Assembly: GCA_963832165.1 (NCBI GenBank)
Contig: CAWHTE010000005.1
Span: 160,001-224,000, forward strand
From: an uncultured delta proteobacterium
GTDB taxonomy: Bacteria; Myxococcota_A; UBA9160; SMWR01
Direction of reading: 5' to 3'
DNA: 64,000 nucleotides
The notes beneath the pieces are model-generated. The model saw only the letters and a list, made by a program, of their open reading frames with translations, had not been told where the DNA came from and made no database searches. How positions within the stretch are numbered: the first letter of the stretch is position 1; each line of letters opens with the position of its first letter. This document shows positions 11,207-44,269 of this stretch, piece by piece. A program made the translations under genes and the position numbers.

Positions 11207-14176
11207 ATGACCTTCGCGCTCCTGCTCGCGTGCTTCTTCCTCTCCGGGTTCTCTGCGCTGCTCTACGAGACGGCGTGGACGCGCGAGTTTGCGTTCGTGT
11301 TCGGGACCTCCGAGCTCGCCGTCGTGGCCGTGCTCGCGGCCTACATGGGCGGCCTCGCGCTCGGAGCCGCGATCGCCGCGCGCGTCGCACCCCGGATCCG
11401 CCGGCCCGTCCTCGCGTATGGGCTGCTCGAGCTCGGCATCGCGCTGTGGGCGCTCGCGCTGCCCGCGGCGATCCGCGCCGTGAGCGCGCTCTATCTCGGC
11501 TGGCTCGGTGGCCTCGACGCGCTTCCCGAGACGCTCGGCATCGCCACCCATGCGTTTCACCTGCTCGGGGCGTTCGCCGTGCTCGTGCCGTGTACGGCGC
11601 TCATGGGCGCCACGCTGCCGCTGCTCGCGGCGCACGCGGTCACGCGCGACGAAGAGATCGGGCCGCGCGTGGGTCTGCTCTACGCCGCCAACACGACCGG
11701 CGCGATCGCGGGAACCGTGGTCGCGGCGTTCGTGTTGCTGCCCGCGCTCGGGCTGCGCGACACCGTGTACTTCGGCGCTGCGGTCAACGCGCTCGTGTTC
11801 GCCGCGGCGGCCGCACTCGCGCGGCGCGCGCCGACGACGGCCACAGCGCACGCTCCGCGCGCGAGCGGCGTGCCGTGGATCCTGCCCGCGATCGCCGTCT
11901 CGGGTGCCGTCTCGTTCGGCTACGAGGTGCTGTGGTTCCGCCTGCTCGGACAGGTGATCGGCGGCAGCACGGCCGCGTTCTCGACCATGCTCGCGAGCTT
12001 TCTCGCGGGCATCGCGCTCGGCAGCGCGCTCGCCTCGCGCTGGGCGAAGACGCCCGCAGCGGCGGCCATCGGCTTCGGCGCCGCGCAGCTCGCGAGCGGC
12101 ACCGCCGCATGGCTCGCGTTCTGCGCGGCCGATCGGCTGCGCGACTGGGCCAGCGCGCTCGGGGTGTCGGTGAACGCGCTGGCGCCCGGAGCGCTGCTCT
12201 CGATGGCGGTGCTCCTGCCGCTCACGCTCTGCGTCGGCGCGACGTTCCCGTTCGCGGTGCGGCTGCTCGCGCGCGATGCGAGCGACGCGTCGGCAGCGAC
12301 CGCGCGCGTCTACGCGTGGAATACGCTGGGCTCGATCGCAGGGGCGATCGGCACCGGGTACTTCCTGTTGCCGTGGATCGGTTTCGTGGGAACGGTCGTG
12401 ACGGGCGCTCTGCTCAACTGCGCGCTCGCGCTCGTCTCGGGCCTGCTGGGGCAGCCCGCGCGCCGCGCGCTCGCCGCTGCAGCCGCCGCGGCGGCACTGT
12501 TCCTGTTGGTGTTTCCCACGCCGGCACCCGACCGGTTGCTGCACGCCTCTCCGCTCGGCGGCGCGTACGACGGCGCCTTCGTCCATTTCGCGGTCGGCCG
12601 CTCGTCGACCGTGGCGCTGATCGAGCAGAGCGGAGGCTGGCGGCTCACCAACAACGGCTTGCCCGAATCGTTCATCCGACCGATCGGCTTCCCGCCCGAG
12701 CCCACCGCGGCGCATTGGCTCTCGGTGCTGCCGGTCCTGCTCCGCCCCGACACCGCGCACATGGTGATCATCGGGCTCGGCGCGGGGATGACGGTCGGGG
12801 CGGTGCCGAGCACGGTGAGCGAGATCGATGTGATCGAGCTCGAGCCGGAGGTGGTCGAGGCCAACGTCGCGGTGCGCGGCCGCGCAGACGGCGACCCGCT
12901 CGCCGACCCGCGCGTGTCGGTGCGGCTCGGCGATGCGCGCGGCGCGCTGATGCTTTCCGGTGGCCGGTTCGATGCGATCGTCTCCCAGCCGAGTCATCCC
13001 TGGACTTCGGGCGCCTCCCATCTCTACACGCGCGAGTTCTTCGAGCTGGTCCACTCCCGGCTCCAGCCCGCAGGTGTATTCGTGCAGTGGATCGGCGCCG
13101 CGTTCGCCGACCCGGACCGCCTGCGCGCGCTGCTCGCGGCGCAGCTCGAGGTGTTCGCGCACGTGCAGGTGTATCGACACTCGGCCGCGATCATCATGGT
13201 GGGGTCCGATGCACCGTTCGACATCGCGACGACCGCGGTGCAGGCGATCGCGCGCTCCCCGCGCGACTTCGCACGCGCGGGCATCCATCGCGCCGAGGAC
13301 GCGATCGCCGGGCTCGTGCTCGATGAGGCGGGAATCCGCGCATTCACGGACGGCGCAGCGCCGAACACCGACGATCGCAACCGGTTCGCGACCTCCGACC
13401 GCCCCACGCTCGGAAAGGACAGCGCCTGGATCAATCGCGAGCTCGCGGTCCACGATCCGCTTCCGGGCCTGCTAGGAACCATCGACGCCGAGAGCCTCTT
13501 GCAGCGCCTCTCGGAGGACGGCCGGACCGGGCGCGCGCGCCGGCTCGCGAGTCAGCTCGAACCCGGTCGCCGCGAGCTCGCGCTGGGGTGGCTCGCGTGG
13601 GACGCGGGGCACAAGGTCAGAGCACGAGCTCAGTTCGCCAAGGTCGCAGGCGATCATGCGCCCGAGAGCGCAGCGATCGGACTCGCGCTGACCGACCCGG
13701 AGGCCGATACCGCGCACCTGCCCGCTCGCGCGCGCGCGCTGATCGAAGCGCTGCGCAGCAAGGATCTGTCGGTCGCGCGCGCACGGGACGCACAGCTCGC
13801 CGAATGGCGGCCGGGAGACGCGCTCTACGGCGAGGCTGTGGAACAGCGAGTGCGCTGGCGGCTCGAGCTCGGTGAGCCCGCCGATCTCGAGGCCGCGATG
13901 GAGATCCTCGAGACGCTGCTCGAGCGCGTCTCGCTCCCGCGCCTGTACCTCTATCGCGCGGAGATCGCCGCGCGCCAGGGCAACCGCGACGTGGCGTGGC
14001 GCTCGCTCCAGGCGCTCGTGTCGCAGCCCGCGATGCGAGCCCCGCCCGCCGTGGCGGAGCGCGGGCTCGCGGTTGCGCGCGCGCTCGGTGATCCGCCGTC
14101 GCCCGACGTGGTGAGCGGGCTCGAGCAGCTGAAACGGGGGCGCGCCGCGAGCGGTGCCGGAGCACGGATCGAGTGA
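11207..14176 (+). CDS. Fused membrane/spermidine synthase-like protein (second paralog)
   Basis: LSGFSALLYETAW, IGLGAGMT, FDAIVSQPSHPW; start taken at ATG 11207 inside the long ORF. Confidence 0.9.
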   Translation: MTFALLLACFFLSGFSALLYETAWTREFAFVFGTSELAVVAVLAAYMGGLALGAAIAARVAPRIRRPVLAYGLLELGIALWALALPAAIRAVSALYLGWLGGLDALPETLGIATHAFHLLGAFAVLVPCTALMGATLPLLAAHAVTRDEEIGPRVGLLYAANTTGAIAGTVVAAFVLLPALGLRDTVYFGAAVNALVFAAAAALARRAPTTATAHAPRASGVPWILPAIAVSGAVSFGYEVLWFRLLGQVIGGSTAAFSTMLASFLAGIALGSALASRWAKTPAAAAIGFGAAQLASGTAAWLAFCAADRLRDWASALGVSVNALAPGALLSMAVLLPLTLCVGATFPFAVRLLARDASDASAATARVYAWNTLGSIAGAIGTGYFLLPWIGFVGTVVTGALLNCALALVSGLLGQPARRALAAAAAAAALFLLVFPTPAPDRLLHASPLGGAYDGAFVHFAVGRSSTVALIEQSGGWRLTNNGLPESFIRPIGFPPEPTAAHWLSVLPVLLRPDTAHMVIIGLGAGMTVGAVPSTVSEIDVIELEPEVVEANVAVRGRADGDPLADPRVSVRLGDARGALMLSGGRFDAIVSQPSHPWTSGASHLYTREFFELVHSRLQPAGVFVQWIGAAFADPDRLRALLAAQLEVFAHVQVYRHSAAIIMVGSDAPFDIATTAVQAIARSPRDFARAGIHRAEDAIAGLVLDEAGIRAFTDGAAPNTDDRNRFATSDRPTLGKDSAWINRELAVHDPLPGLLGTIDAESLLQRLSEDGRTGRARRLASQLEPGRRELALGWLAWDAGHKVRARAQFAKVAGDHAPESAAIGLALTDPEADTAHLPARARALIEALRSKDLSVARARDAQLAEWRPGDALYGEAVEQRVRWRLELGEPADLEAAMEILETLLERVSLPRLYLYRAEIAARQGNRDVAWRSLQALVSQPAMRAPPAVAERGLAVARALGDPPSPDVVSGLEQLKRGRAASGAGARIE

Positions 14177-28744: not shown

Positions 28745-29256
28745 AATTGGTGGAATGGCTCGCGAAGCAGGTGACCGACGATCCGCGCGCACTGCGCTGG
28801 TTCGCGGAGCCCGGCAGCGACGAGCGGATCGCGCGCGCGTACCGCGAGCTGCTCGCGGGCTACCAGATCGATCCCGCGTCGATCCTCAAGACGACCCGCA
28901 TGCTCGAGCCCGGTGAGCGCCCGGGCTCGGTGGAGGTGAACGAGATCGCCTTCTACTCGCTGTGTGCGCACCACTTCCTGCCCTTCTTCGGCGAGGTCGA
29001 CATCGCCTACGTGCCCGGGGACCGGATTCTCGGGCTCGGCAAGCTGCCGCGACTCGTCGATGCGCTGGCCCGCCGCTTCCAGATCCAGGAGGACCTCGTG
29101 CGCGAGGTGGCGCACGTGATGATGGAGCACGGCCGCGCGCGCGGCGTGCGCGTGCGCGCGCGAGCACAGCACCTGTGCATGTGCAGCCGCGGACCCGCGA
29201 GCCAATCGTCGATCACGCACACCGAGTTCGCGCTTGGCACGTTGGACGGCGGCTAG
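28741..29256 (+). CDS. folE: GTP cyclohydrolase I, short and divergent
   Basis: FYSLCAHHFLPFFG, IAYVP, FQIQE, HLCMCSRG. Confidence 0.8.
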   Translation: MKLVEWLAKQVTDDPRALRWFAEPGSDERIARAYRELLAGYQIDPASILKTTRMLEPGERPGSVEVNEIAFYSLCAHHFLPFFGEVDIAYVPGDRILGLGKLPRLVDALARRFQIQEDLVREVAHVMMEHGRARGVRVRARAQHLCMCSRGPASQSSITHTEFALGTLDGG

Positions 29257-30085
29257 CGCGGCCCTCGCGCTCGCGCTCGCCCTGCCCGCGCGCGGCGACG
29301 ACCGCGCGATCGCGTTCCGGCGCCACGGCGAGCCCGTCGCCACGCGCGATCTCGCTGCGCTCGAACAGATCACGCGCCCCGAGCGCCTGCGCGTGTTCGA
29401 GCCCTACGAGCAGCGCGAGATCGAGTTCAGCGCGCTGCGGTTCGAGCGCGTGCTCGACGCCCTCTACGGCGCGGAATGGCGCGTGGAAGACGAGCTCTTG
29501 TTTACGTGCCGCGACGGGTACCAGCCCACGGTGCCGGTCGCGCGCGTGCTCGCGCACGCGGCGTGGCTCGCGTTCGAGCGCGTCGGCTCGCCCGCGTTCA
29601 CGATCCGCAAGCGCGAGTCGGGGCGCGTGCAGGACGTCTCGCTCGCGCCGTTCTACCTGATCTGGGAGAACCTCGACGACACACAGGTGCGATCGGAGGG
29701 CGACTACGGCTGGCCCTATCAGCTCGTCGGCGTCGAGCTGATCCGCAGCCGCGACCGCTTCCCGCGGATGGCGCCGCCCGCGAGCTCGCCGCCGAAGGTG
29801 CACGAGGGCTTTGCCGCGTTCCGCGTCCACTGCAGCCGCTGCCATCCCGTCAACGGCGAAGGCGGCAAGATCGGTCCCGAGCTGAATGCGACGGCGGGCC
29901 CGGCCGGCCGGCGCGATCCCGCGTGGCTGCGCGATTGGATCGATGATCCGAGTCGGATCGCGCCCAACGCGCGCATGGAGCGGCTCAACCCCGCGCTGCC
30001 GAACCGCGAGGCCGTGATCGCATCGATCATCGCCTACCTCCAGGCGATGGTGGATTACCCGCGCGCGGAGTCGAAGCGTGACTAG
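29234..30085 (+). CDS. Periplasmic protein with C-terminal monoheme cytochrome c
   Basis: CSRCH..GGKIGPELN..W..P..M; N-domain FTCRDGY, WPYQLV. Confidence 0.8.
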   Translation: MARWTAASAALALALALPARGDDRAIAFRRHGEPVATRDLAALEQITRPERLRVFEPYEQREIEFSALRFERVLDALYGAEWRVEDELLFTCRDGYQPTVPVARVLAHAAWLAFERVGSPAFTIRKRESGRVQDVSLAPFYLIWENLDDTQVRSEGDYGWPYQLVGVELIRSRDRFPRMAPPASSPPKVHEGFAAFRVHCSRCHPVNGEGGKIGPELNATAGPAGRRDPAWLRDWIDDPSRIAPNARMERLNPALPNREAVIASIIAYLQAMVDYPRAESKRD

Positions 30086-30758
30086 CGCCGGCCCGTTCGA
30101 GGCCTTCTACGCGAGCGCGTGGCAGCACCCGCTCGCGCTCTGGGTGGCCGCGATCGCGGGCGGGCTCGTGTGCCTCTCGCGGCGCGATCTGCACGCGAGC
30201 GTGCGGCGCTACGGCCTCGCGCTCGTGGTGCTGTCGCTGCTCGACGCATGGCTCACGTCGACCCACGTGTACGGGATCGGCACGCTGCCGGGCCGTCTCG
30301 CGAGCTACGTGCCGCTGTTCTTCGTGCTCGCAGGCGATCTCCGCTATCTGCTGCTCTGGGAGACGGCGGCGCCCGACGGGCGGATCGCGCTCGCCCGGGG
30401 CATGCCGCTGCGGGCACTCGGCCTCACGTTGATCGTTCCGATCTTTGCGCAGATCGCCGCACCCGCGATCGCGCCCGGAAACACGCGCGTGCTGTTCTTC
30501 GTCTACGAGCTCGCGTTCTGCGCGCTCACGCTCGGGCTCTTGCGCTGGCACCCGAACGCGCGCGCACTGCCCTGGGTGCGCGCGGTGAGCCGCTTCGTGC
30601 TGCTCTACTACGGACTGTGGGCCACCGCCGACGCGATCCTTCTCGCGACGGGCACCGAACTCGGCTATGCGCTGCGCGTGATCCCGAACCTGCTCTACTA
30701 CGGCGGGCTGATCGGCGCGATCGCGTGGCTCGCGCCGGGCGCGGAACCCGCGCGCTGA
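30078..30758 (+). CDS. Hypothetical integral membrane protein
   Basis: Several hydrophobic segments; overlaps upstream stop. Confidence 0.7.
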   Translation: MTSAGPFEAFYASAWQHPLALWVAAIAGGLVCLSRRDLHASVRRYGLALVVLSLLDAWLTSTHVYGIGTLPGRLASYVPLFFVLAGDLRYLLLWETAAPDGRIALARGMPLRALGLTLIVPIFAQIAAPAIAPGNTRVLFFVYELAFCALTLGLLRWHPNARALPWVRAVSRFVLLYYGLWATADAILLATGTELGYALRVIPNLLYYGGLIGAIAWLAPGAEPAR

Positions 30759-32580: not shown

Positions 32581-33989
32581 CGCGTCGCTTCGGCTGCAGG
32601 GGTGCTAGGCGCGCAGGGCTCATCCCAGATCGTGACATCGTCGACGCGATCGGAGCCGCCAGACGCCGGAGGCGCTTCCTTGAGGAGGTGGATCGTCACG
32701 CTCTCGAGCTGTGCCCTGTCATTGCGTCGCGCATTCTCGCTGCGACACAGCCACACCGCGTACGCCTGCCGGACTGCCGGCCGCCGACGCCACAAGCCCC
32801 GGTGATAGATGCGCCAGCGCCAGCCGAGATCGAGCTCGGACAGGCGCGTTGGGGTCGACCACGACGGCGCACCGCCCCAGAGCAGATCCTCTTCCGCGCC
32901 GTCGGCACGCCGTCCGAGGACCACGAGCCAGCCGTCACCACGGCCCGGGTCCGCGAACATCCCCCACTTCTGAGTGAGCCCGCTGAGCTGGAGCGGTGCT
33001 CGCAGCGGCGCGGGAATCGACCGCTCGGGCAGCGTGCCCAGATTCGAGACGAGCACCAGGCCCAGGCACGCGAGCGCGAGCCATTGCCGTTTCCGGAGCA
33101 GGTCGGGCGCTCCACCGGCCCCAACACCGAGCCGATCCCAGAGGGTTCCCGGAATCAGCGCGCACCAGGCCACGATGCACACGAACGAGAAGAGCCCGAG
33201 ATCCAGCAGCAGGAGCAGCCCGAGGTGGAAGCCCCAGAAGCCGAGCACGAGCGCGGTGCGCAGCGGACCGACTCCGAGCGGCACGAACAGCAAGAGCGGC
33301 GCAATCGCCTCGAAATAGCGCACCGCGTGTGTGATCGCGGTGAGGAGCTCGGGGTAGCCCAGAGCGACTGCCGCAAGCGGTCTGGCGATCATCTCGTTCT
33401 GCAGCGCCACCGCCACCGCAGAGCCATCCGACCAGCTCGCTCCCGTCTTGAGCAGCGCGGAGAACGAGTAGATGCAGGCGAGCTGGAAGACGAATCCGAC
33501 GCTGCCGAATCCGAGGAAGCCCCGGGCCGGCGTGCCGCCGCGCCGGTCGATCGAAGCGCGCTCGGCCAGTGGCAGGAACAGCGACCAGAACAGCAGCAGG
33601 CACAGGACCGAGTCGCCCCAGTTCACCACGAGCGGGTTGCGGTGCTGAATCGAGAGCGTGAGGACCCAGGCCAGCGCGGTCGCCAGCCGTGTGCGGTAGC
33701 CCGCGACGAGACACACCCCGGCGAGCGCATGGATCACGAGCAGGCCGCCCGCGAATAGCGCGCTCCCATCGAGCAGGTGCAGCGAGAGAAGCCACCTTCC
33801 CCCGATGAACTCGCGCACGACGGCGCGCGGCACGGCGCCTGCGTCGCCATAGAGCGCGGTCGTGTCGCCCAGGCGCCCGCTTGCGTCGATCACGACGAGC
33901 AGCCCCAGCCCGACGCGGAACAGCGCCAGCGAGCGGCTGTCGAGCGCGAACAGCCGCTCCGGAATACCGCGCAGGAATGCCGGCATCAC
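32577..33989 (-). CDS. HTTM-domain membrane protein
   Basis: LDSRSLALFR, GYRTR, SIQHRNP, QKWGMFA. Confidence 0.85.
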   Translation of the reverse strand: MMPAFLRGIPERLFALDSRSLALFRVGLGLLVVIDASGRLGDTTALYGDAGAVPRAVVREFIGGRWLLSLHLLDGSALFAGGLLVIHALAGVCLVAGYRTRLATALAWVLTLSIQHRNPLVVNWGDSVLCLLLFWSLFLPLAERASIDRRGGTPARGFLGFGSVGFVFQLACIYSFSALLKTGASWSDGSAVAVALQNEMIARPLAAVALGYPELLTAITHAVRYFEAIAPLLLFVPLGVGPLRTALVLGFWGFHLGLLLLLDLGLFSFVCIVAWCALIPGTLWDRLGVGAGGAPDLLRKRQWLALACLGLVLVSNLGTLPERSIPAPLRAPLQLSGLTQKWGMFADPGRGDGWLVVLGRRADGAEEDLLWGGAPSWSTPTRLSELDLGWRWRIYHRGLWRRRPAVRQAYAVWLCRSENARRNDRAQLESVTIHLLKEAPPASGGSDRVDDVTIWDEPCAPSTPAAEATR

Positions 33990-34060
33990 GGCCCGATCGC
34001 GCCGCCGCAGGTTCTCATGTCGCGATCATGCGCGAACGGATCGCGGTTGCAACGGAGCAG

Positions 34061-34088
34061 TGGCGTCCCCAACGGGAGTCGAACCCGT
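34061..34088 (-). repeat. att copy: duplicated 3' end of tRNA-Glu
   Basis: tggcgtccccaacgggagtcgaacccgt identical to 43531-43558. Confidence 0.97.
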
Positions 34089-34113
34089 TGGGTTTCTCCG
34101 CAACCGCTTGCAA

Positions 34114-34362
34114 TCACGACTCTTTCCTCCGCGCGAGGTTGTGACGGGTTTGTGACGGTCGCCGCGCTAGGTGGCGCACCAGCAGCGCTCGTAGAAAATC
34201 GCTCGGCGACTCGTCGCCCGTGGCGTCTTCCAACGCCCGCGCCTCATTGGCGGTCAGGTTCACCGTCACCCGTATCTTGCGCCGCTCGCCGGGAGGGAGA
34301 GGCTTCCGACCCGATCCGGGCCTCGGTCCTCCCCACTCGCCTTTGGTTTTGCGACGCATCAA
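34114..34362 (-). CDS. Small DNA-binding protein (GGxRPGSGRK motif plus ribbon-helix-helix-like region)
   Basis: WGGPRPGSGRKP..RVTVNLT..EARAL..PSDFLRALL. Confidence 0.65.
   Translation of the reverse strand: MMRRKTKGEWGGPRPGSGRKPLPPGERRKIRVTVNLTANEARALEDATGDESPSDFLRALLVRHLARRPSQTRHNLARRKES
34139..34158 (+). promoter_or_regulatory. Putative integrase arm-type sites, left
   Basis: TTGTGACGG twice, 11-bp period. Confidence 0.6.
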
Positions 34363-34502
34363 ACCATCTTACGGGCTCACTGCTCTCGCCGCCACAGGCG
34401 CGGCTCGAACCACCGGGGCCACTGATTCGCCCACCACCCGTCGTGCGGCGAGCGCGTGTTCGGCGAGATCGTTCCGGGCGGTCGAGAGCGCGGCCGCTCC
34501 GT

Positions 34503-35157
34503 TCATGCGTCCAGCGTCGTCTCCCCGCTCTCGTCCCCGTCCTCGCCCGCAACGCCGGTTTCGCAGGTCGGGTAGCCGCGCAGCCGCTGTGCCTCCATCG
34601 CGATCCGTTTCGCCATGCCGTCACCACCGAGAGACTCGATGACAGCCCGAGAACAAGAACAACCACGTGCGCGCGTGCGGCAACGAAACACGGATCCTTG
34701 TTCTCGGGGTCTCCGGGTGCCGGAGGCAGCACCGGCATCCCATAGAGGACGCGGAACATCATCTCGTCGCCATCGATCCCAGACTCGCGGCGGTACTCGT
34801 CGGCGCTCACGATGTACTCGGCCACTGAGATCGCGCTCGGGTCCCTCCGTGCAGATCGACGTTCCACCAGAATGGCTGCGCGAAGCCCATCATCAGTGAA
34901 GTGAGCCACTCGGCCGCGGCATCGGGGATCAGGAACCGGCCCTTGCCGCGCCGCTGCGAATCCTCCGCCAGCTGACGGGCGCGCCACTGTGCAACCTCGT
35001 GCAGCCGAAAGAGGTAGTCGCTCCTTCCGTTTCTCCGCCGCTCGTGCGGACAGCCGCGGCGAACCCAGTTGTCAACCGTTACCAGGCTCACGCCGTACTC
35101 ACGCGCCAGGTCGGAGCGGTTGTAGGTCAACTCGCTCTCGTCTTCCGTCCCGCTCAT
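34503..35157 (-). CDS. Lambda Nu1/TerS-like winged-HTH protein (Rpp-like?), probably frameshifted
   Basis: YNRSDLAREYGVSLVTVDNWVRRGCP..YLFRLHEVAQWR resembles the Nu1 N-terminal HTH; C-terminal extent is inferred across frames. Confidence 0.6.
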
Positions 35158-35199
35158 ATAAACAACCCCCTAGCGGCTGCAGTGCCTAGGCCGATCGGG

Positions 35200-35241
35200 C
35201 GCGGTGCCCGACTCCGCAAGCAAGGACTCCAGGAAGGACCC
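35200..35241 (-). other. Lambda-like cosQ-cosN packaging site
   Basis: Minus strand GGGTCCT-N15-TTGCG-GAGTCGGGCAC-CGCG, 42 bp upstream of the Nu1-like start. Confidence 0.6.
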
Positions 35242-35312
35242 GCGAAGTCTATGTGCTACGGAAAGCGTAGCACCTGGAGCGCTTCGCTCGGGGTCGCCGG
35301 TCCTTTTGGAAT

Positions 35313-35380
35313 CCGGCCTCCGCGGGGCTGGAACTTTCCCACAGGCCGCTAAGGCGGAGGCCGGTCAGCTGCAGCGCCTT
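35313..35380 (-). other. Truncated attC (L'' plus terminal hairpin), interrupted by IS; its R'' lies at 36918-36924
   Basis: Removing the IS gives GCCTAACAAGGCGCTGCAGCTGACCGGCCTCCGC..GCGGAGGCCGG; L'/R' missing. Confidence 0.8.
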
Positions 35381-35399
35381 CCATAGTAGGCGATGTCAA

Positions 35400-35715
35400 G
35401 AGCATGGTACTCCGTTATTCGACCTAGCGGCGTCGAACGTCCAGGCATCATTCGATCGATCGGCACCGTACGGGTCCATCCGCCATCCTCCTCCGCGTTC
35501 TCCTCGGGCCGTGAAGCGTGCGGGCTTGCGAACCATGCTTCCATCGGGGCCTCGAAGGCCATCGCTTCATTCGGTCCTGCGAGGGGGCATATCCTTGTTA
35601 TTGGGCCTGCAACCGCAGTCGCGGCCACGCGTTGGCACGGATGCTTCCCCTCGACCCTGTGCCCCGGAGATCCAGATCTCGCTGTAGCAGACGATGCTCC
35701 GTCGATGCAGAGCGA
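35400..35715 (-). ncRNA. Candidate bridge/seek RNA in the IS 3' non-coding end (boundaries approximate)
   Basis: Target match CCTTGTTA (35593-35600), AAGGC (35555-35559), donor match CTTCCAT (35538-35544). Confidence 0.65.
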
Positions 35716-36771
35716 TCAGTGGGTGACGAGATTGTGGATCTTCCCGGGGTCGTACTCCTCCTGTGTCTTCCACATGGCCAGCACGATCGCGGCGATCTGC
35801 CGCGCCACCGTGAGCTTGGCCAGGTTCGGCTTCGTGCCGTTCTCGAGCTGCCGGTCGTAGCCCTCGCGCAGCGGATTCGGTCCGCAGTGCGCGACGACGG
35901 TCGTGGCCGCGCCCTTGAAGATCGCTTTGAGCATCCGGTTGTGGTTGAAGTTCAAACCGCGCGTCTGCACGACCCGAGCCTTCACCCATCGGCCCTGGTC
36001 CTGCACCCAGTCGCTCGACGACCGCATCACGACCCCAAAGCCACAGTAGGCCCAAAACTGCCGCTTGGTGCGGAAGCGGTACGGGGTCACCACGATCGGC
36101 AGCATCTGCGCGACCCGGATCGGACCGAGCCCGGGCGCAGTCTCGAGGATCCGCGCGATCCGATGCCGATGCGACTCGCGCAGCATCGCCGCTTCCGCTT
36201 CGGCCTTGAGCGCTTCGAGCTGATCGAGCTCGCGTCCCAGGAGCTCGACGGCTTCCCGTGTCGCCGGCGGCAGCGCCTGCGCACGCTTCGCCCGTTCCTC
36301 GAGCTTGTACAGCGCGTCGCCCGCACACGGCAGGCCGCGAGACCGAAAGAAGCTCTTCAGTCGACTCTTCACCCGCGCCACGTCCCGGGTCACCATCGTG
36401 TACGTCCGAGCCCGATCGCGCAACGCCGTGAAGAGCTTCGCGTCCTTGTACACCGGCCGCTTGATCCCCCCGGTGCGCAGCTTCTCCGCGAGCCCATGCG
36501 CGTCGATCGCGTCGCTCTTCTGGCCCGGCTTCCACTCACCGCGGTACACGACGAGCTCGTCCACATGGGGCGAGAGGATCTCGTAGAGCCACTGGCTCCA
36601 CTCGCCTTCCTCGATGCACAAGTGCAGATTCCCCGCGAACGATTGGAGGTAGCCCACGAGCGCCTTCCCATTCGTCTCCACCACGTCGCGCCGGATCTGC
36701 TTCCCCGACGCATCCAACCCGCAGAACGTGACACTCGCGGCGTGCACGTCGGCTCCGAGATAGCGTTCCAT
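35716..36771 (-). CDS. IS110-family transposase/recombinase
   Basis: YLGADVH, CIEEG, KSDAIDA (DEDD RuvC); TAPGLGP, FWAYCGF..RSSS; RBS AAGGAGG. Confidence 0.95.
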   Translation of the reverse strand: MERYLGADVHAASVTFCGLDASGKQIRRDVVETNGKALVGYLQSFAGNLHLCIEEGEWSQWLYEILSPHVDELVVYRGEWKPGQKSDAIDAHGLAEKLRTGGIKRPVYKDAKLFTALRDRARTYTMVTRDVARVKSRLKSFFRSRGLPCAGDALYKLEERAKRAQALPPATREAVELLGRELDQLEALKAEAEAAMLRESHRHRIARILETAPGLGPIRVAQMLPIVVTPYRFRTKRQFWAYCGFGVVMRSSSDWVQDQGRWVKARVVQTRGLNFNHNRMLKAIFKGAATTVVAHCGPNPLREGYDRQLENGTKPNLAKLTVARQIAAIVLAMWKTQEEYDPGKIHNLVTH

Positions 36772-36918
36772 TGCGGTCCTCCTTCGTTGGGCGTCCATGC
36801 CCAGGTCGTGTTTCAACCCGAAGCATGTCCCCAGCGGAGGAGACCGCCACCGCGCCTCGATGCTGCCTTCCCATGCAGCGCGCCTCGATCGAGGACGTGA
36901 CCTACTTATGATCCCTTG

Positions 36919-37455
36919 TTAGGCCGCGGCCAGCTCGCCAGCTCGGCCATGGGTAAGCAGCTCGCGGAAGCTCTCAGGAACGTGTGCAACCAGTTGCGAG
37001 CGAAGATGCCAGAGGCCGTTTCGCCCAACCTGGACATCCGCGGCCGCAAGGAAGAGAGTTTGTATGTGAACTGGCGGATCGCCAGAGACCGTGCAGATCG
37101 AAACGATTGTGGCGGTTGAGATAGAACGCGGAGTTGTGATAGGGGGGACATACTCGCGCGAGGCGACCATCGTTCTTGAGCGAGCCTGTCCGTCGCCGAT
37201 TTCGAATGCGACTTGGATGTCGCGACCGCCCGAGTCGTAGTGCCCGAGAAACAGCCGGACGGGATGCCCCCCGGGAGCACCACGCTCGGACTTGCACCAG
37301 GAAACCTTGCCAGCTCGGATGACGAAGGACACCGCAACGATCGGTTCGGATGCGGCCGCTGTACCGCGCCAGTCGCGAACCGCCGCTGGAAGCCAAGCGC
37401 CTGTGAGGGCGACGTCGAGCCGTCGACAGGCATCGGATTGGAACGCATCCAGCAT
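36919..37455 (-). CDS. Integron cassette 3: hypothetical protein
   Basis: Stop TAA lies inside the R'' GCCTAAC; ATG 15 bp after the R' core. Confidence 0.65.
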   Translation of the reverse strand: MLDAFQSDACRRLDVALTGAWLPAAVRDWRGTAAASEPIVAVSFVIRAGKVSWCKSERGAPGGHPVRLFLGHYDSGGRDIQVAFEIGDGQARSRTMVASREYVPPITTPRSISTATIVSICTVSGDPPVHIQTLFLAAADVQVGRNGLWHLRSQLVAHVPESFRELLTHGRAGELAAA

Positions 37456-37470
37456 GATTCTCTTGCCGCG

Positions 37471-37595
37471 GCCTAACGGATCGGCGTTGAGCTGCCGGCC
37501 GCTGACCGATTCGCGACGGCTCTCAACGCTCGCCGCCAGAATGCTACCACCGTTCGGAAGGGCGCAGGACGGTCAGCTCCAACGCCTTGTTGGGC
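37471..37595 (-). other. attC site (125 bp)
   Basis: Minus strand GCCCAACAAGGCGTTGGAGCTGACC...GGCAGCTCAACGCCGATCCGTTAGGC. Confidence 0.92.
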
Positions 37596-37622
37596 AGCGC
37601 CTAGCGCATCTAGACAAGGACG

Positions 37623-38003
37623 CTACCGAAGCAGTGCATCAAGGTCGTCCCGCCAGGGATGCCGGTCCGGAGCTGCCCACTCCCCACTTGGCGGTGGAAA
37701 GTTCGAACGAGCGTAGGCGCACCTTGTAGAGAAGTCGACCACCGCGTAGAGGCGGTCGTTGATGAAAAGGCCGGCCTTCTGGCCGTCTGGAGACCAGACG
37801 ACGCGCACGATCGCCTCGTGGTGATTATCGGCAAACTGGGACGCCTTGTAGATCTGGACCGCGTCTAGGATTGAACCGCGTTCGCGATCGTGTGCGTAGA
37901 AGTAGCCCGATTCGCCGTCGTCTTCGAACACAACACTCACGGGCGAACTCGGTGAGTCGCTCGCGAACCACGCTTCTTTGCCTGGTGTGAGGTGCTCAAG
38001 CAT
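37623..38003 (-). CDS. Integron cassette 2: DUF2251-like protein
   Basis: VVFEDDGESGYFYA..ILDAVQIY..WSPDG.KA.L.IN..YAVVDF..RSNFPPP. Confidence 0.8.
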   Translation of the reverse strand: MLEHLTPGKEAWFASDSPSSPVSVVFEDDGESGYFYAHDRERGSILDAVQIYKASQFADNHHEAIVRVVWSPDGQKAGLFINDRLYAVVDFSTRCAYARSNFPPPSGEWAAPDRHPWRDDLDALLR

Positions 38004-38011
38004 TCGGCGCT

Positions 38012-38171
38012 GCCCAACGGATCGGCGCTCAGCTGCGAGCGCGCTGACCGCGATGTTACAACACGGCGCCACGCCGCCAGACCGCAAGAGCCGCTGGCGA
38101 GGCGAAGCGAGCCCAAGCGGCGATGCCACGAGAATCCACTGGCGCTCGGCAGCTGCAGCGCCTTGTTGGGC
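38012..38171 (-). other. attC site (160 bp)
   Basis: Minus strand GCCCAACAAGGCGCTGCAGCTGCCGAGCGC...GCGCTCGCAGCTGAGCGCCGATCCGTTGGGC. Confidence 0.92.
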
Positions 38172-38192
38172 GGCGTGCTGCCATTCAACAGC

Positions 38193-38837
38193 TCATCTCG
38201 CGAGCGATTGAACTCGCTGCAGCATCTCAACTCGATCTTTCGTGGTCGGGGGGACAAGCTTGCTGTCCGCTACGAATGCGGGTGCCCCGTGTCCAATAAC
38301 GAACCTCGTCCCGAATCTTACCCGCGGGTTGTACTCCAGTACTTCGACTTTGGTTCGGGTGGGACCATCATCCCGTAGATGGATGATGAAGTCGCAGTGA
38401 AATGGCAGAGGCTTTCCAGATGCCGTGTATTCGGAATACCACTCCATAGCACCATTAAGGAAGATATCGTGCTTTCTCGCCTCGGCCGAAAGGCGACGGT
38501 ATCGGTCCATCGCAGGGTCATCCTTACTGTTACGACTTGGAGGCGGCCAAGTATTCTCGTCTGTCGGAACGAAATTACCAAGTGAAAATGACCTGTATTC
38601 GAGGTGCGGGGTTACTAGCGACCTGCCGGGAAGGCGAACAGTAGCTCTGTCCACCAACTTCTCGCCTAGCGCACCATCGCGGATCTTCGCCGAGACGTCG
38701 GCAAGACTTAGCGGGACGACGCCCTCAACGAAATCTCTGGTTTCAGCGGCTTGCCGCTCAACCTCCCCCCCGCAGGAGAAAAGGAGCGGCAGAAGAGCGA
38801 TCAGTAGTTCCTTGCGCTCCATACGCAGCTTTCGCAT
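38193..38837 (-). CDS. Integron cassette 1: hypothetical lipoprotein (start uncertain)
   Basis: MERKELLIALLPLLFSC lipobox; visibly more AT-rich than host genes. Confidence 0.7.
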   Translation of the reverse strand: MRKLRMERKELLIALLPLLFSCGGEVERQAAETRDFVEGVVPLSLADVSAKIRDGALGEKLVDRATVRLPGRSLVTPHLEYRSFSLGNFVPTDENTWPPPSRNSKDDPAMDRYRRLSAEARKHDIFLNGAMEWYSEYTASGKPLPFHCDFIIHLRDDGPTRTKVEVLEYNPRVRFGTRFVIGHGAPAFVADSKLVPPTTKDRVEMLQRVQSLAR

Positions 38838-38918
38838 CTGCGGCAAGCAGGCCGAGAACACTACGGAGGCAATCAATCCGAACCCTCGAGCGCAATTTGG
38901 TGGTGTTCCATTCACGCC

Positions 38919-38985
38919 GCCCAACTACTAATGGATTGCGCTCCCCCAACAGCAAACGCTGCGAGAGCTTGCAGCCTATTGTACC
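38919..38985 (-). promoter_or_regulatory. attI-like site with possible Pc -10
   Basis: Core GTTGGGC not preceded by an attC palindrome; second GTTGGGG 25 bp upstream; TACAAT at 38983-38978. Confidence 0.6.
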
Positions 38986-39403
38986 GGCGGTTGTGGGGAG
39001 CGGTCGCAGAATCGCGGGGTTTGGGCGGGAGTCGAGTCCAATTAGGCTGCGAGATTTCGCAGGATAAGAGGGAGACGGGCGCGGGGGGCGGTCGCAGCTC
39101 TCGGTTCTCGCAGCCTATGTCGATGTTCGTTGCGGGCATCCGGCGTCGAAGCTCGCGACGGAGCACGTGAATCGCGTGACTGGAGCGGCGGCAAAGGCTG
39201 CGAGGCGATGGACGCATCCACGTGATCCGCAGCGGTGGACGAATCGTCCGGCGTGGGCAGCCGCGAGCGAAGCGGGGCGGCGAGACGCAGGATCGCAGGC
39301 GACCACTCGATCAGTGCAGGTCGCCCGGTTGCGTCGATCGCGAGCACGAACGGCGCGCAGCCACTTTCGAGGCGGAGCGGCCCCAGGATGCGGCCTCGAA
39401 TCC

Positions 39404-39500
39404 GGTGCGGCTGGTGCAGCCGGTGCTGCCTTCCACATCCTTTTCCCTGCGCGCGTGGGGGGGAGTTAGCGAGAGCTGCACCACCTGCACCGCGTGCACC
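39404..39500. repeat. Iteron-like repeats, putative replication origin
   Basis: GGTGC at 39404/39413/39422 and TGCACC at 39477/39486/39495. Confidence 0.65.
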
Positions 39501-39513
39501 TTGGCCCTGGTAG

Positions 39514-41032
39514 TCATCGGGTCCTCACCCCCTTGAATCCTCGAACACCGCCGTGCTGCGCCGTCTCTTCGAGGTCGGGGTTCTGGCGCAGCCGCTCGTA
39601 CACGGCCTCGGCGCGCAGTGGGAAGCGGTGCCCGTTGTCCGCGCACCATATTCGATAGCTCGCGTACAGCGCCGTTCGCGGCGTCACGGCCTGCGCGTGC
39701 TCAGCGAGCAGCGATCGTCGAGCCACCCGGCCACTGAGTCGAGTTGCCGCCGATAGTCGCCACCTGCATCGCGCACGGCCTTCGGTAGCTCGAAGCGCCC
39801 GCGTTCGATGAGTCGGCGCAGGGCATCGACGGCCGCCACGAGCAACCCCTCAAGCTCAGCCTGCGTCGTCAACTTCGCGACGAGGTAGGGGTCACGCTTC
39901 TCGGGGGCGATCACGCTCTGCATCGGGACCACGATCCAGCGCTCGAACGACGCTTCGCTCTGGTCCCTGGAGTACGGCGCTTCGTTCGCCGAGAAGATCG
40001 GCAGCGCGAAGCTCGTGAACGAAAACGGCTGGCCGTACTTCCGCTCGGCGTAGATCGCGTCGCCGCCGGTCATCATCTTAAACACGTCGGTGCGCTCGAT
40101 TGCCCTGGCGTCGAGGTCGCCGCAGACGTTTGCCAACTTTCCATAGAGCGCGGCGGCGGCAAAGCGAGACTCGGAGAATAGTTGCAGCGGTACCGAGGCG
40201 ACGTTCGCCGCTCCGAGCAGCGCGCGGATGATCGAGAGCAACACCAACTTGCCGTTTCGACCCGGCCCGAGGAGCAGCACCGCGGTGTGCAGCGAAAGAT
40301 CCGCGAGCAGCGCGTATCCGATGATCTCCAGCACGAGCTGCACGGTCGGCTCGTCGGGCAGCACATCTCCGAGGAAGGCTTCGATCCGCATACAGCAGGA
40401 GTGCACGTGCCACTCGATCGGGATCTGGATCGCGCTGCGGTGCTCAGGTGTGTGCGGGCGCAATTCACCGGTGCGCCAGTCGAGCAGCCCGTTGCGGACG
40501 TTGAGAAATTGCTCAGGTGGACGGTGCGGGATCGTTGGCGCTTCAGACGCAGCCACGAGATCACTTCGTCGGAATGCCGCCGCTTGAACTTCTGGCCCAA
40601 CCGGTCGCGCACCCAGGCGCGCGCGTGCTGCTCGCCGTCGGCGACGTAGACGCCATCGCTGTAGCGATACAGCCGATCGTCGTCGCCGAGGGCGAGATGA
40701 TGTTCGCGTTTGAGCAGGACGCCTGCGCGCGATGGGGTGAATCCGCTCTCGCCGAAGAACTCACCACCCGCGGTACTGCCATTGGCAGTAGATCGTGCCC
40801 CGGCGGTTCGCGAGCACAGCTCACCGAGCCCGAGCGCGTCGAGATGTTCCGAATCCGATCTCCCACAACCGCAGAGCAGAACAACGCCACCATCGCGACC
40901 CGCGCGGGCGGCCATCCAAGGCGGTGCGCCGTCTTCGAGTGGACACCGAGCGCGTCCGCTCGGGTCGAGCCCGCCGAGCCCAGCATCTTCGAGCGCGACG
41001 TGGACGCGGTCGATCGCGGCCGCCGCCGTCAT
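39514..41032 (-). CDS. P4/D5-family SF3 helicase with N-terminal Zn-finger-like domain, two frameshifts
   Basis: NVRNGLLDWRTGELRPH, GPGRNGK, LYGKLAN, FKMMTGGD..AERKY, IFSAN; C-terminal LYASYRIWCADNG. Confidence 0.88.
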
Positions 41033-41217
41033 TCGCCCGGCTCCGCCGTCGCCTCGGACGCGACGAGCCGCACCGGCCTCTCAAGACGCGCCAGACGCCG
41101 CCGTTCGAGCGCGGCCAGCTCCGACGCAAGGCGCTGGACCACTTTGGGGTCGTCCGAGCGGCCGAGGATGCGGACGCCACCGCCCAGGACGGACTCGATC
41201 AGTAGAGCCTCGCGCAT
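41029..41217 (-). CDS. Small hypothetical protein coupled to the helicase
   Basis: 62 aa, ATGA overlap with the helicase start. Confidence 0.5.
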   Translation of the reverse strand: MREALLIESVLGGGVRILGRSDDPKVVQRLASELAALERRRLARLERPVRLVASEATAEPGE

Positions 41218-41265
41218 GGGTTCCGACCTCCTGCCCGTCTACTCCGAGCCAGGAGGTGTTTGCGC

Positions 41266-42162
41266 TTACACGGCCCTACGAAATTTCGCGCGGATCCGAC
41301 CGAGGTGGACGCGAACGGTGGATGACGCGAGCCCGACGTGCTCGGCAGCAGCCTCGCTCTCGCCACCGTTCTCGTACATCGCGGCGACGATCTCGCGTTC
41401 GCGAGGGCTGAGCGCGGTGGCTGAACGGGCGCACTGGATTTGCAATTCCACCTCGCGATCCGACGCGGGGAGGTCCTCGACGTTTAGATCGGTGTGGGGA
41501 CGGTCCATCATCTCGCGAACGTCCCGCCGAACGATTGAAAACACGGCGTCAGCGAGCGCCTTCCGAAAACGCGGATTCTCGCGGCGGCAGAGATGGAATG
41601 GAAGCGAACCGACCTTCGCGGCCGCCTCGGGGGTCGCCGCCAGTACCAGCTCCCGCCGCAGCTCCTCCCGCTGGCGTCCCTCACGGATCGCAATTCGCCA
41701 GAGTGCGCGCTTCACCTCCGCGCGCGCATCGGGGTGTCCGTGGAACCCACCGAAAGCATTTGCAATCCATGCATCTGCAATCCATTCCGCCGCCAGATCG
41801 CGCGCATCGTCTGCGTAGGGCCATCCGCCGCGGTGCCGCATCGCACGAGCGGACCACGCCAGGTCTGGCTCCGCCGGAGTCTTCGCCTCCTCAACGTAGC
41901 CCTCCGCCATCCTGACGGTCTGTGCGGCCGCCTCGAAGTCCAAGGATGCGAGTACCGCGCGTAGCGCCTCTTGGGCCACATCCAGCATCGGCTGGAGCGT
42001 GCGCATAATCGCGCGGTACTGGCGATCGTGTTCGGCCACTAGTTCGCGCACGTGTTGCACGAGCCACGGCGGCGGCAGAACGTCACACGCTCGCTCTCCG
42101 ACGGGAGCGTCGGGCGCTGCAAGGATCTCGGCGGCCGTCAGTAGTCGAATCGCCTCACTCAC
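41266..42162 (-). CDS. Regulator with C-terminal sigma70-r4/LuxR-type HTH
   Basis: LSPREREIV..AAEHVGLASSTVRVHLGRIRAK. Confidence 0.7.
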   Translation of the reverse strand: MSEAIRLLTAAEILAAPDAPVGERACDVLPPPWLVQHVRELVAEHDRQYRAIMRTLQPMLDVAQEALRAVLASLDFEAAAQTVRMAEGYVEEAKTPAEPDLAWSARAMRHRGGWPYADDARDLAAEWIADAWIANAFGGFHGHPDARAEVKRALWRIAIREGRQREELRRELVLAATPEAAAKVGSLPFHLCRRENPRFRKALADAVFSIVRRDVREMMDRPHTDLNVEDLPASDREVELQIQCARSATALSPREREIVAAMYENGGESEAAAEHVGLASSTVRVHLGRIRAKFRRAV

Positions 42163-42173
42163 CCGTGGAAATC

Positions 42174-43325
42174 CTACTGCGCTCGCGAACGTCGCGCGAT
42201 TTCGAGCATCCCTTGGTCGAGTCGATTCGCGTAGCGCCGCGTGCTGCGAGAGTCGGCGTGCCCGAGGTAGTCGCGAACGGCGCGCTCGTTCTTGGTCCGC
42301 TCCATCGCTTCGGTTGCGAACGTGTGCTTAGTGCCCTCGTACAGCTTCACCGGCTTCGGCAGCCCGGCCTCGGTGCACGCGGCCGTCCACCGCTCGCGGA
42401 GCTGCCAGTGGGACCAGCGCCGACCCGATCGGGGGTTCGGGAGCAGCACCGCACCAGGATCGGCCGCGAGGCGCTTCTCGGCGGGCCAGCGTGCCTCGAT
42501 CCATGCGGCCACCAGCTCGGGCACCGGCACATCGCGATTGCGGCGCGTCTTCGTCGGGCCGACGCGCGCGCTCGGACCGGGACCCTGCACTGCCTTCGTG
42601 ATCGAGAGCCGCGGCGGATCGCCGGGGCGGTAGTCGGCGACGGTGAGCGCGCGAACCTCGCCGGGACGCAGCCCCATGAACGCCATCGCCAGGTGCGCGC
42701 CGCGGTCGGCTTCGGGGATCGCATCGAGGATCGCCTGTTGCGTCGCAGGCGAGAGAATCGTCGGCGTGTAGTTGGCCTGGGCGACGTGCGGGAACGCGGG
42801 AACCTCGCGCAACGTGCGCTGGCGCTGGCACCAGCGCAGGAACGCGCGAAATGCGCCGAGCACGTGTCGGCGCGTCTTGGGCGTAGAGCGCGCGTTCCTT
42901 CGCCATCCACAGCGACCACGATTCGAGCGCGCCCTCGGTGACTTCCGTCAATCCGCGCGCGCCCGACCACGCCACCTCCCCGCCCTTCCGGCCGTAGCGT
43001 CGATACTCGCGCACGGTGAGCGGGCTCCGATCGCCGATCTGAACGAGCCCGTCCATGTGTTCGAGCCAGCCCGTGTAGCGGTTGGCGATGCGGTGAATGT
43101 CGGCGACGACGGGCAGGAACTCCGAGACCGCTTCCTCCCGCGGCGTCCCCTGCGCGATCTTCACGCGGATCACGTTGAGCACAGCCTCGGCCATCGCTCG
43201 GTTGTCGCGCGAACGACACACCGGCGAGCCCGTGGATCCACCCGAAGGGCCTCGCGTCGATGCGCCAGCGCTGACCGTCCGACGTGCGCCGGACCTCACG
43301 ACAGCTTCCGGTCCCCGCGCGCCAT
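42174..43325 (-). CDS. Tyrosine recombinase (phage-type integrase), frameshifted
   Basis: GLRPGEVRAL, TKT, KHTFAT, LGHADSRSTRRY; N-terminal domains in adjacent frames. Confidence 0.88.
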
Positions 43326-43473
43326 CACGAGCACCGCGAGCATGTGCTCGGATTCGGTGCGAAGGCGGAAAGCGTCCATGCCTTCCGACTCCGCGCCGCG
43401 AGCGGATTTCGTTTACAGCGAACGCAACCGGTGCCGATCCCGTTGGGGCTCAACCCGGAGGAAGGGCTCCGAC

Positions 43474-43493
43474 TTGTGACGCAGTTGTGATGG
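43474..43493 (+). promoter_or_regulatory. Putative integrase arm-type sites, right
   Basis: TTGTGACGC and TTGTGATGG, 11-bp period. Confidence 0.6.
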
Positions 43494-43530
43494 CCGTAGG
43501 TGGGTGTAACTAACTGAAATGCGTGCTATT

Positions 43531-43606
43531 TGGCGTCCCCAACGGGAGTCGAACCCGTGTCGCCGCCTTGAAAGGGCGGTGTCCTAGGCCTCTAGACGAT
43601 GGGGAC
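43531..43606 (-). tRNA. tRNA-Glu(TTC)
   Basis: GTCCCCATCGTCTAGAGGCCTAGGACACCGCCCTTTCAAGGCGGCGACACGGGTTCGACTCCCGTTGGGGACGCCA, 76 nt with CCA. Confidence 0.98.
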
Positions 43607-43636
43607 GGCCGGCGCGCAAGATAGCGGAGCGAGGCT

Positions 43637-44269
43637 TCAATTCCCCGGCGCGATCGTATCGGCGACGCGCCACAGATACCACGACGCGACGCTGCGGTAG
43701 GGACGCCACGGCTCCGCGAGCACCTCGAGCTCGCGCGGCTTCGGCAGCTCGCGCAGCCCGTAGAGCTGCATCGCGCCCTTGCGGACCCCGTAGTCGCCGA
43801 CCGGCAGCACGTCGGGCCGCCCGAGCGAGAACATCAGGAGCATGTGCGCGGTCCACTCCCCGATCCCGTGGATCTGCGTCACCGCCGCAACGACGTCCGC
43901 GTCGTCCATCGCGCGCAGCCTTCGGTTCGACACGTCGCCCGCGGCGAACGCGGTCGCCACCGCGCGCACCGCGGCGATCTTCTGGCGCGAGAGCCCGGCC
44001 GCGCGCAGCTGGGTGTCGGGCGCCTCGAGCAGCAGCTCGGGCCGCGGGTAGCGCCCGCGCCACGGCGCGCGCAGGCGCGTGTCGATCGTGCGCGCGGCCG
44101 CGCCCGCGAGCTGCTGGTAGATCACCGAGCGCAGCAGCATCCGATACGGATCGCCGCGGTGCTCCATGGAGCACGGCCCGACGCGCCGGATCACGACGGC
44201 CAGAACCGGATCGCGCCGCAAGAGGGAGCGGCGCGCGCGAGCGTGTCCGTTGTCGTCCGGGGGAGTCAT
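43637..44269 (-). CDS. HhH-GPD DNA-3-methyladenine glycosylase II family protein
   Basis: SVIYQQL, GLSRQK, GIGEWTA, DYGVR, PWRPYRSVASWYLW. Confidence 0.9.
   Translation of the reverse strand: MTPPDDNGHARARRSLLRRDPVLAVVIRRVGPCSMEHRGDPYRMLLRSVIYQQLAGAAARTIDTRLRAPWRGRYPRPELLLEAPDTQLRAAGLSRQKIAAVRAVATAFAAGDVSNRRLRAMDDADVVAAVTQIHGIGEWTAHMLLMFSLGRPDVLPVGDYGVRKGAMQLYGLRELPKPRELEVLAEPWRPYRSVASWYLWRVADTIAPGN

Follow-up and report, generated by a model that had tools for sequence, protein, structure and literature searches.

An orphan, attI-headed cassette array in a probably decaying P4-primase island of an uncultured delta proteobacterium

Introduction

Can a small, satellite-like island serve as a dedicated carrier of integron cassettes? 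The question is raised by an element next to a tRNA-Glu gene in a 64,000-nucleotide stretch of contig CAWHTE010000005.1 (positions 160,001 to 224,000 of the forward strand, assembly GCA_963832165.1) from an uncultured delta proteobacterium. This whole stretch is called the window below, and coordinates refer to it unless a contig handle (C2, C4, C7, C11) of the same genome or a relative (G-number) is named. An initial annotation had described the element as a working cos-type phage satellite in which an attI site without IntI, the integron integrase, formed a cargo slot; a host IntI would load the slot and helper-phage particles would carry the cassettes away. The analysis reported here points elsewhere. 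The region is probably a decaying island with a P4-family primase, which holds one of several orphan, attI-headed cassette arrays of this genome, arrays of the kind known as CALINs (clusters of attC sites lacking integron integrases). The features are collected in Table 1.

Results

The array is headed by an attI-type leader

The 150 nt before cassette 1 recur, by BLAST, at three other places in the genome, with cassettes after each. An alignment was made of ten copies of this leader, to which this genome contributed four, a congener two and soil metagenome contigs four. All ten end at GTTRGNCGGC, within the longer pattern …CGCAA…ATTAnnAGTTRGNCGGC, after which the sequences diverge; in the window, conservation ahead of cassette 1 stops at AGTAGTTGGGCGGCG. 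The leader core holds two CTGCGA..TCGCAG palindromes, a TACAAT box and the junction GTTGGGC at 38925-38919, and two further AGGCTGCGAG motifs are found in the upstream part, to 39204. Both palindromes are common to the aligned leaders, one copy being changed on both arms with the palindrome kept. An attC site follows in the same direction in nine of the ten; at the tenth (G005:C91) the contig ends 300 nt away. A search of the genome contig collection with the exact 21-nt leader core gave 0 matches, and a looser pattern gave two loci in genome contigs and four in metagenomes.

A profile of the leader (R2), run with 30 candidates scored per genome, detected 30 copies, spread over 11 of the 101 related genomes. 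Of these copies, seven lie 30-340 nt downstream of intI on the same strand, the intI matches being above the curated cut-off (G005:C272, G006:C626, G031:C14, G057:C104, G014:C70, G018:C40 and G028:C64). Arrays of attC sites come after the leader at G005:C272, G031:C14, G057:C104 and G018:C40, and none was detected in the stretches fetched at G006:C626, G014:C70 and G028:C64. Compared by BLAST with 12 intI loci, the leader had given no match; this is put down to low sensitivity, because the profile R2 did match. Since R2 matches lie right after intI in seven relatives, the leader is, by homology, the attI region of the clade's 'inverted' integrons, and the attI-like site suspected by the initial annotation holds up. 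Conservation ends at a GTTRRRY-type core, and by this homology an attI stands at the head of the array.

Inverted integrons, in which intI, attI and cassettes run in one direction, are a known arrangement according to the part of PMC4889954 used here. The seven relatives have the order intI, leader and, where detected, attC array on one strand, and the leader and attC sites of the window belong to the same system; the window differs in having no intI, and the relatives hold extra leader copies without intI. Two integron layouts occur in one genus. G001 (L040, G001:C7:1-9000) has a classical divergent intI and array with an unrelated attI region, unlike G005:C272 (L037) and G006:C626 (L081), where intI, leader and cassettes all have one direction.

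Two other identities were considered for the leader and rejected. As one folded RNA or an attC-like hairpin, it gave a consensus fold of -7.6 kcal/mol with no net covariation, the two local palindromes alone being conserved; as a cassette without an open reading frame (ORF), it has a left edge, CATTRTCC, unlike the TTRRRY cassette start. With regard to a cassette promoter (Pc), the TACAAT box of the leader is conserved, and a consensus scan gave no sigma-70-type site there.

The same leader heads arrays outside the element, and no intI was found

This genome has five copies of the leader: the one in the window and those at C11:96028-96178, C7:814298-814449, C4:697222-697328 and C4:693112-693257. 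A scan of the flanks of C11:96028, C7:814298 and C4:697222 found ordinary genes there, including PFK (phosphofructokinase) and an oxidoreductase. In a metagenome copy, the leader and its five cassettes are flanked by enoyl-CoA hydratase and MscS genes. Because the same leader heads at least four other IntI-less arrays of this genome outside the island, the array is not a cargo slot specific to it; the idea of a dedicated slot is not supported, leader and array standing among ordinary genes at the three scanned loci.

No intI was found in the genome, whose assembly is 89% complete: the best match to the integron integrase model TIGR02249 reached 72.6 bits and is Xer-like (cut-off 265), and tblastn with the IntI of three relatives returned Xer-like genes and the island integrase only. 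The latter scored 29 bits against TIGR02249; the tyrosine integrase of the island is not an integron integrase. Nor did tblastn detect an intI remnant upstream of the leaders at the window, C11:96028, C7:814298 and C4:697222. The array therefore lacks the IntI gene that stands beside a complete integron's cassettes. An IntI-less landing pad, with a leader homologous to intI-linked attI and no intI near it, is what the initial annotation had claimed for the island; the host IntI that it had supposed would load this pad was not recovered by TIGR02249 or tblastn.

An island that once bore a complete inverted integron, its intI later deleted so that the leader and array remain as a relic and not as a separate arrival, would suit two observations: the intI-linked leaders always directly follow intI (7 cases), and ~450 nt of non-coding DNA lie between the stop codon of the primase gene and the leader. 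A locus in the relative G056 (L061, G056:C9:1748000-1767999) also speaks for a former intI in the window's island. It contains a tRNA-Met, an integrase 49% identical to that of the window, a 191-aa ORF and a MobA/VirD2-like relaxase, and 3.3 kb past the relaxase a complete integron (intI 457.8 bits) with at least four attC sites of the window's family, one of them holding an IS110-family element. This could be an integron-bearing mobilisable island, but its borders were not found and the integron may lie outside. In the window, tblastn over 38800-41500 yielded no remnant of intI (best E 2.0), the sequence upstream of the leader is unlike that of the intI-linked loci, and the other orphan copies of the genome show the same clean left border. 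Loss of intI from the island is thus considered unlikely.

Among the relatives, IntI was found in 33 of 60, and in 3 of 6 congeners. The ratio of leaders to intI was 4 to 1 in G031, 6 to 1 in G005, 5 to 1 in G006, 3 to 1 in G018 and 5 to 0 in this genome; G014 has two leaders. Relatives with several leaders have one copy each beside intI, and several of the orphan copies are followed by attC arrays. It can be suggested, tentatively, that the attI leader of this clade is a multi-copy module, with one copy behind intI and orphan copies that each head a small array of their own at scattered sites of the chromosome and, in the window, within an island; that a single IntI serves many pads in trans; and that pads in islands could export cassettes whenever an island moves.

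A perfect 22-nt palindrome, GAACTGGATTCAAATCCAGTTC, lies upstream of the leaders at C11:96028, C7:814298 and C4:697222. It was examined as a tRNA fragment or att site and rejected, no tRNA being called there by ARAGORN. The palindrome has ~18 sites in the genome (e.g. C11:95907, C7:814209, C4:697337 and C2:365452); four copies are within ~750 nt of cassette arrays, and a variant was seen upstream of a metagenome leader. By its sequence and occurrence it is taken to be a REP-like (repetitive extragenic palindrome) repeat. The largest attC cluster of the genome (L006, G000:C2:358000-376000; attC sites at 7841-12022 on the minus strand, five sites with E below 1e-6) lies between pfkB-kinase and BolA genes and includes an IS110-family transposase of 366 aa. 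No attI leader was detected at this cluster with 30 candidates scored per genome.

Cassettes, attC sites and an insertion sequence

On the minus strand, after each cassette ORF, the attC sites of the window have the form GCCYAAC-AA-GGCGYT…AGCGCC-GATCC-GTTRGGC. The covariance model R1 was built from six sites of the genome, including two of the window, and scored the two complete sites as given in Table 1; genome-wide it made 15 matches at E<=1, with 150 of 8644 candidates scored. As an independent check, R1 also picked out sites that accompany true intI genes in relatives and are oriented as is expected of cassettes. In an alignment of 46 sites, which was fitted to the model and favours it, 91.7% of the cells pair; sliding the partners lowers this to 17-41%. 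Compensatory change was seen in 15 of 24 pairs. The sites of the array thus have the R''/L''...L'/R' hairpin of attC.

The ORF of cassette 1 had no match in Pfam, PHROG, NCBIfam or PADLOC; by inspection its N-terminus resembles a lipoprotein signal with a cysteine lipobox, so that it is a putative lipoprotein. The lowest G+C of the region (0.57) is found in this cassette, at 38193-38924. The stop codon of the cassette 3 ORF, which matched no family, lies inside the R'' box GCCTAAC (36924-36918). None of the three cassette ORFs matched a defence family in PADLOC. In the 3' half of attC3 (35380 to ~35267) the inner stem is kept and the R' box is degenerate, as judged by alignment with the intact C7 copy. 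The three cassettes counted initially were therefore seen correctly in so far as two have complete attC sites; the third site is split by an insertion sequence (IS) of 1.5 kb that had gone unmentioned, and its 3' half is degenerate. With two complete attC sites 417 nt apart, one split by the IS and no intI found, the array has the composition of a CALIN.

The IS sits right after GCCTAACAAGG in attC3 and has ~140 nt of non-coding DNA before tnp, the transposase gene, and ~335 nt after it. Contig C7 carries a copy that is 99.5% identical at the same attC position, and the junctions are identical in both copies. An IS1111 group that targets attC sites (e.g. ISKpn4 and ISPst6) has been delimited by criteria taken here from the relevant part of PMC11187229, which cites Tetu & Holmes 2008 and Post & Hall 2009. 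Like its members, the window IS has a DEDD transposase, a long non-coding region after tnp and an insertion point that is fixed, as is its orientation, close to an end of attC (2/2 copies). It differs in that its transposase scores 112.7 bits against NCBIfam NF033542, below the IS110 equivalog cut-off of 140, and it is placed in the group by these criteria. The IS110-family element of G056 is another that sits inside an attC.

The island is a true insertion with broken core genes

The element measures 9,470 bp between copies of a tRNA-Glu repeat (direct-repeat search, family D8). In G003, of the same genus, the site is empty, the tRNA-Glu abutting the bases that are found just left of window position 34061. 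Homologues of the window genes at 28846-30741 lie ~3.1 kb from the G003 tRNA, and in the window the distance is 3.3 kb plus the island. Because G003 has tRNA-Glu joined directly to left-flank sequence without the island, the 9.47 kb element has truly been inserted, and a relative keeps the unoccupied site. With repeats at its borders and an integrase adjoining the tRNA, it has the hallmarks of a tRNA-integrated genomic island, and the tRNA-Glu-anchored element of ~9.4 kb that had been outlined before gains exact 28-nt repeats at both ends. The G+C content is ~0.70-0.72 in the flanks and 0.57-0.68 within the island. The tRNA-Glu(UUC) is the sole tRNA gene called in the window, and apart from it Rfam gave nothing significant over 33500-44000. 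In G001 (L049, G001:C15:22000-36000) the tRNA-Glu is inverted relative to a type II/IV secretion ATPase gene ~800 nt away, an orientation that differs from this genome (G000), G003 and G005 and may reflect a rearrangement local to this tRNA.

These borders also bear on a possible mis-assembly, in which repeats would have wrongly placed the island or the array on this contig. The genome has multiple copies of the leader, of attC sites and of the IS, and such repeats do break assemblies in relatives, where contigs of G005 end at leaders. Against this, the whole element is framed by exact att repeats, beyond which host synteny continues on either side, the cassette sequences are unique in the genome, and the contig is 375 kb long. 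An artefact of this kind is hardly credible.

Every gene called in the island is on the minus strand; for this genome of 70% G+C, reading frames were picked by third-position G+C (GC3). Capsid, tail and conjugation families were absent from the island in Pfam (34 ORFs) and PHROGs (15 ORFs), in agreement with the one-strand layout without such genes that had been reported initially. The catalytic domain of the integrase was recognised on ORF 42174-42863(-) (Pfam Phage_integrase, 2.1e-12). Three full-length homologues of the integrase in relatives (433-559 aa) were compared with the window, and all three need two frames to align, their N-terminal halves at 43401/43203-42877 and their catalytic halves at 42911-42189. 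The primase-helicase matches TIGR01613, the model of the P4-family primase C-terminal region, with 189 bits (cut-off 108.7). In Pfam, DUF5906 and D5_N were hit on 39684-40556, and Pox_D5 in a different frame on 39514-39726. Frames were compared by tblastx with a 45-bit floor and by a GC3 frame plot, and the window primase shifts frame near 40547 relative to both intact homologues (502 and 574 aa).

No homopolymer runs occur at the break points. Long high-GC3 ORFs make up 39% of the island backbone versus 76-78% of the host flanks, where ORFs of 797 to 1358 aa are intact. The frameshifts of integrase and primase are read as real decay, and the island would now be decaying because both of these genes are frameshifted. 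The integrase, helix-turn-helix (HTH) regulator and D5 helicase of the initial annotation are all present, two of them, the integrase and the primase-helicase, being split over frames.

No homologous island was found. Homologues of the primase occur in 3 of 60 relatives, with that gene alone in common, and no attC was seen at the two primase-homologue loci examined. One primase-homologue locus is a compact element with a regulator, a prim-pol, a helicase, an HTH_17 protein and an integrase. The comparison with related integrase and helicase elements that had been proposed thus yielded no second island and, in 2/2 primase loci, no attC. Since the pad also lies outside the island, no intI was found and there is no homologous island, the simplest reading is a one-off capture of the array by the island, the very outcome that the initial annotation had named as contrary to its proposal.

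Table 1. Features of the island and its borders, in window coordinates
Feature	Position	Strand	Details
Left att repeat, far island border	34061..34088		exact 28-nt copy of tRNA-Glu 3' end, 100%
Basic ORF, 82 aa, far island end	34114..34362	-	0 families (Pfam, PHROG, PADLOC, NCBIfam)
116-aa protein like small-terminase N-terminal winged HTH ('Nu1-like')	34807..35157	-	phrog_57, phage tblastn
Cassette 3	35267..37470	-	ORF 37455-36919; attC3 split by IS
IS110/IS1111-family IS in attC3, ~1.53 kb	35381..36913	-	transposase 36816-35716; DEDD_Tnp_IS110, Transposase_20 (Pfam)
Cassette 2	37471..38011	-	DUF2251 ORF 38003-37623 (Pfam 1.8e-27); attC2 37595-37471 (R1, 107.7 bits)
Cassette 1	38012..38924	-	ORF ~38837-38193; attC1 38171-38012 (R1, 126.7 bits)
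attI leader (by homology)	38914..39204	-	core 39068-38914 (~155 nt); alignments A5-A7, profile R2 106 bits
Iteron-like cluster	39403..39500		just past primase stop codon; three tandem GGTGCAS units, 9-nt spacing, plus inverted arm
P4-family primase / D5-type helicase pseudogene	39514..40759	-	at least 3 frames, breaks near 40547 and 39700
Putative regulator, 298 aa, C-terminal sigma-70 region-4 / LuxR-type HTH	41266..42162	-	Sigma70_r4_2 1.1e-6; GerE 7.2e-6
Tyrosine integrase pseudogene	42174..43401	-	N-terminal half ~43401-42877, catalytic half 42911-42189, different frames
Right att repeat (tRNA-Glu 3' 28 nt)	43531..43558		direct repeat D8
tRNA-Glu (UUC)	43531..43606	-	ARAGORN; Rfam tRNA 61.5 bits

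Repeats, the terminase-like gene and likeness to satellites

Two repeat clusters were found where an iteron-like origin had been proposed. The motif GGTGCAS occurs four times at 39413-39500, and this cluster may be the origin of the island. AGGCTGCRAG has four copies in ~240 nt (38968-39204) versus 0.42 expected per 64 kb; as origin iterons these repeats were rejected, being part of the attI leader, so that this share of the proposed origin does not stand.

The 116-aa protein at the far end was compared with small terminase subunits (TerS). It matches phrog_57 TerS at 9.4e-9, restricted to profile positions 6-73 of 199, and matches excisionase (4.4e-7) and MerR-like families in PHROGs almost equally well. 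The 11 phage records that it matched by tblastn (E 8e-6 to 9e-5, covering 47-73% of the query) are all annotated TerS at the genome start. Its closest relative, with 63% identity over residues 10-58, is a TerS in the viral contig L059, directly upstream of the large subunit TerL (phrog_15, 2e-250); the C-terminal part of the L059 TerS has no counterpart in the island protein. A search for homologues of the protein returned the query alone among 7 candidates of near length. What had been called a Nu1-like gene is hence small-terminase-like in its DNA-binding (HTH) domain and unrelated in its C-terminal part.

PICI-type (phage-inducible chromosomal island) and P4-like satellites have defining gene sets, which for P4 comprise psu, delta, sid and alpA with the alpha primase. 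The island shares with them an integrase at the tRNA side, a regulator, a P4-family primase, repeats after the primase and a packaging-like gene at the far end, with a size of ~10 kb and no capsid or tail genes. It differs in lacking psu, delta, sid, ppi, rpp and capsid-remodelling families, none of which was found in the island by Pfam and PHROGs, and in its frameshifted core genes. Of the P4 set it has the primase and a weak HTH_17 match (Pfam, 1.5e-3, below cut-off); of the PICI layout, the integrase and the primase of the pri-rep replication module are present in frameshifted, not intact, form, and the repeats after the primase are no more than iteron-like. The TerS N-terminal HTH match is the one packaging-module match in the island (Pfam, PHROGs).

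For a working cos-type satellite speak the integrase, regulator, primase, repeats and terminase-like gene on one strand without structural genes found, the uniform TerS annotation of the 11 phage matches, the nearest relative's position beside TerL, and the genuine attI leader. Several lines of evidence run counter to it. Integrase and primase are frameshifted, the TerS likeness ends at an HTH domain that excisionases and MerR-like regulators share, and no cos site is demonstrable. The lambda-like helper prophage that the initial annotation would have looked for did not appear, the 89%-complete assembly giving no match to a GpA-type terminase or HK97-type capsid and only two weak TerL_ATPase matches (27.6 and 21.1 bits). 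No intI was found to load the pad, leader and array also occur at four or more sites outside the island, and both of the nearest primase-bearing loci are without attC. It is very improbable that the island works as a cos-type satellite whose IntI-less pad is a cargo slot loaded by a host IntI for transport in helper particles.

Discussion

The reading that we favour, a decaying P4-primase island with one of several orphan arrays of the genome, rests on the observed borders, broken genes and attC structure, on the leader's homology to intI-linked attI and on its other copies. A 9.47 kb integrative island of P4-primase/PICI-type build would have entered the 3' end of tRNA-Glu. Between its primase and terminase-like genes it would have come to hold an orphan platform, consisting of an attI leader and three cassettes with no intI, whose array would have been built by an integron integrase acting from elsewhere, in trans. 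Later, an attC-targeting IS1111-type element would have split the third attC, and the island would be decaying through the frameshifts in its integrase and primase-helicase.

Some points weigh against this account. The frameshifts could in principle be assembly errors confined to the region, and the missing part of the assembly may hold intI. The terminase-like gene, small size, layout and absent structural genes fit a satellite-like ancestry. The account gives no route by which the leader and array entered the island, nor was a closely related island found that would display the locus prior to their insertion.

CALINs and their possible origins are treated in PMC4889954; in the part of that survey used here, 279 CALINs are reported; half come from genomes that have no IntI, and 38% adjoin an IS. 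The array of the window shares with these at least two close attC sites, no intI nearby, an IS beside or inside the array and several clusters per genome. It differs in keeping an attI leader homologous to an intI-linked one and in lying inside a tRNA-integrated island; attI was annotated in the survey for classes 1-3 only, as far as the same part of the text goes. Integron parts in phages and in an inactive prophage were described by Qi et al. 2023 (PMC9892861). The likeness consists in attC clusters and attI on a phage-related mobile element that could move cassettes, and the difference in that whole phages and prophages are concerned there, whereas the window has a small element without structural genes and with broken mobility genes. 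IntI-driven cassette insertion outside att sites has been reported as well (10.1101/2022.09.11.507474). With these two sources in print, the general idea behind the initial annotation is not new.

Among the matches listed, no paper joins integron, attC and phage satellite in its title or abstract. One of them mentions phage satellites, in the part considered, only where the sizes of defence systems are compared. Several attI copies per genome with at most one intI form a pattern undescribed in the literature found, though no well-worded search was aimed at it.

The locus clearly exemplifies a cassette array that has an attI at its head, has no integrase and lies within a small P4-primase island, and such islands join plasmids, transposons, genomic islands and phages as carriers of integron parts. 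That genomes of this group have several attI copies and at most one intI is a finding worth keeping. Should these orphan pads be loaded in trans, this would account in part for the abundance of CALINs, so far unexplained, and the view of the integron as one platform per integrase would change.

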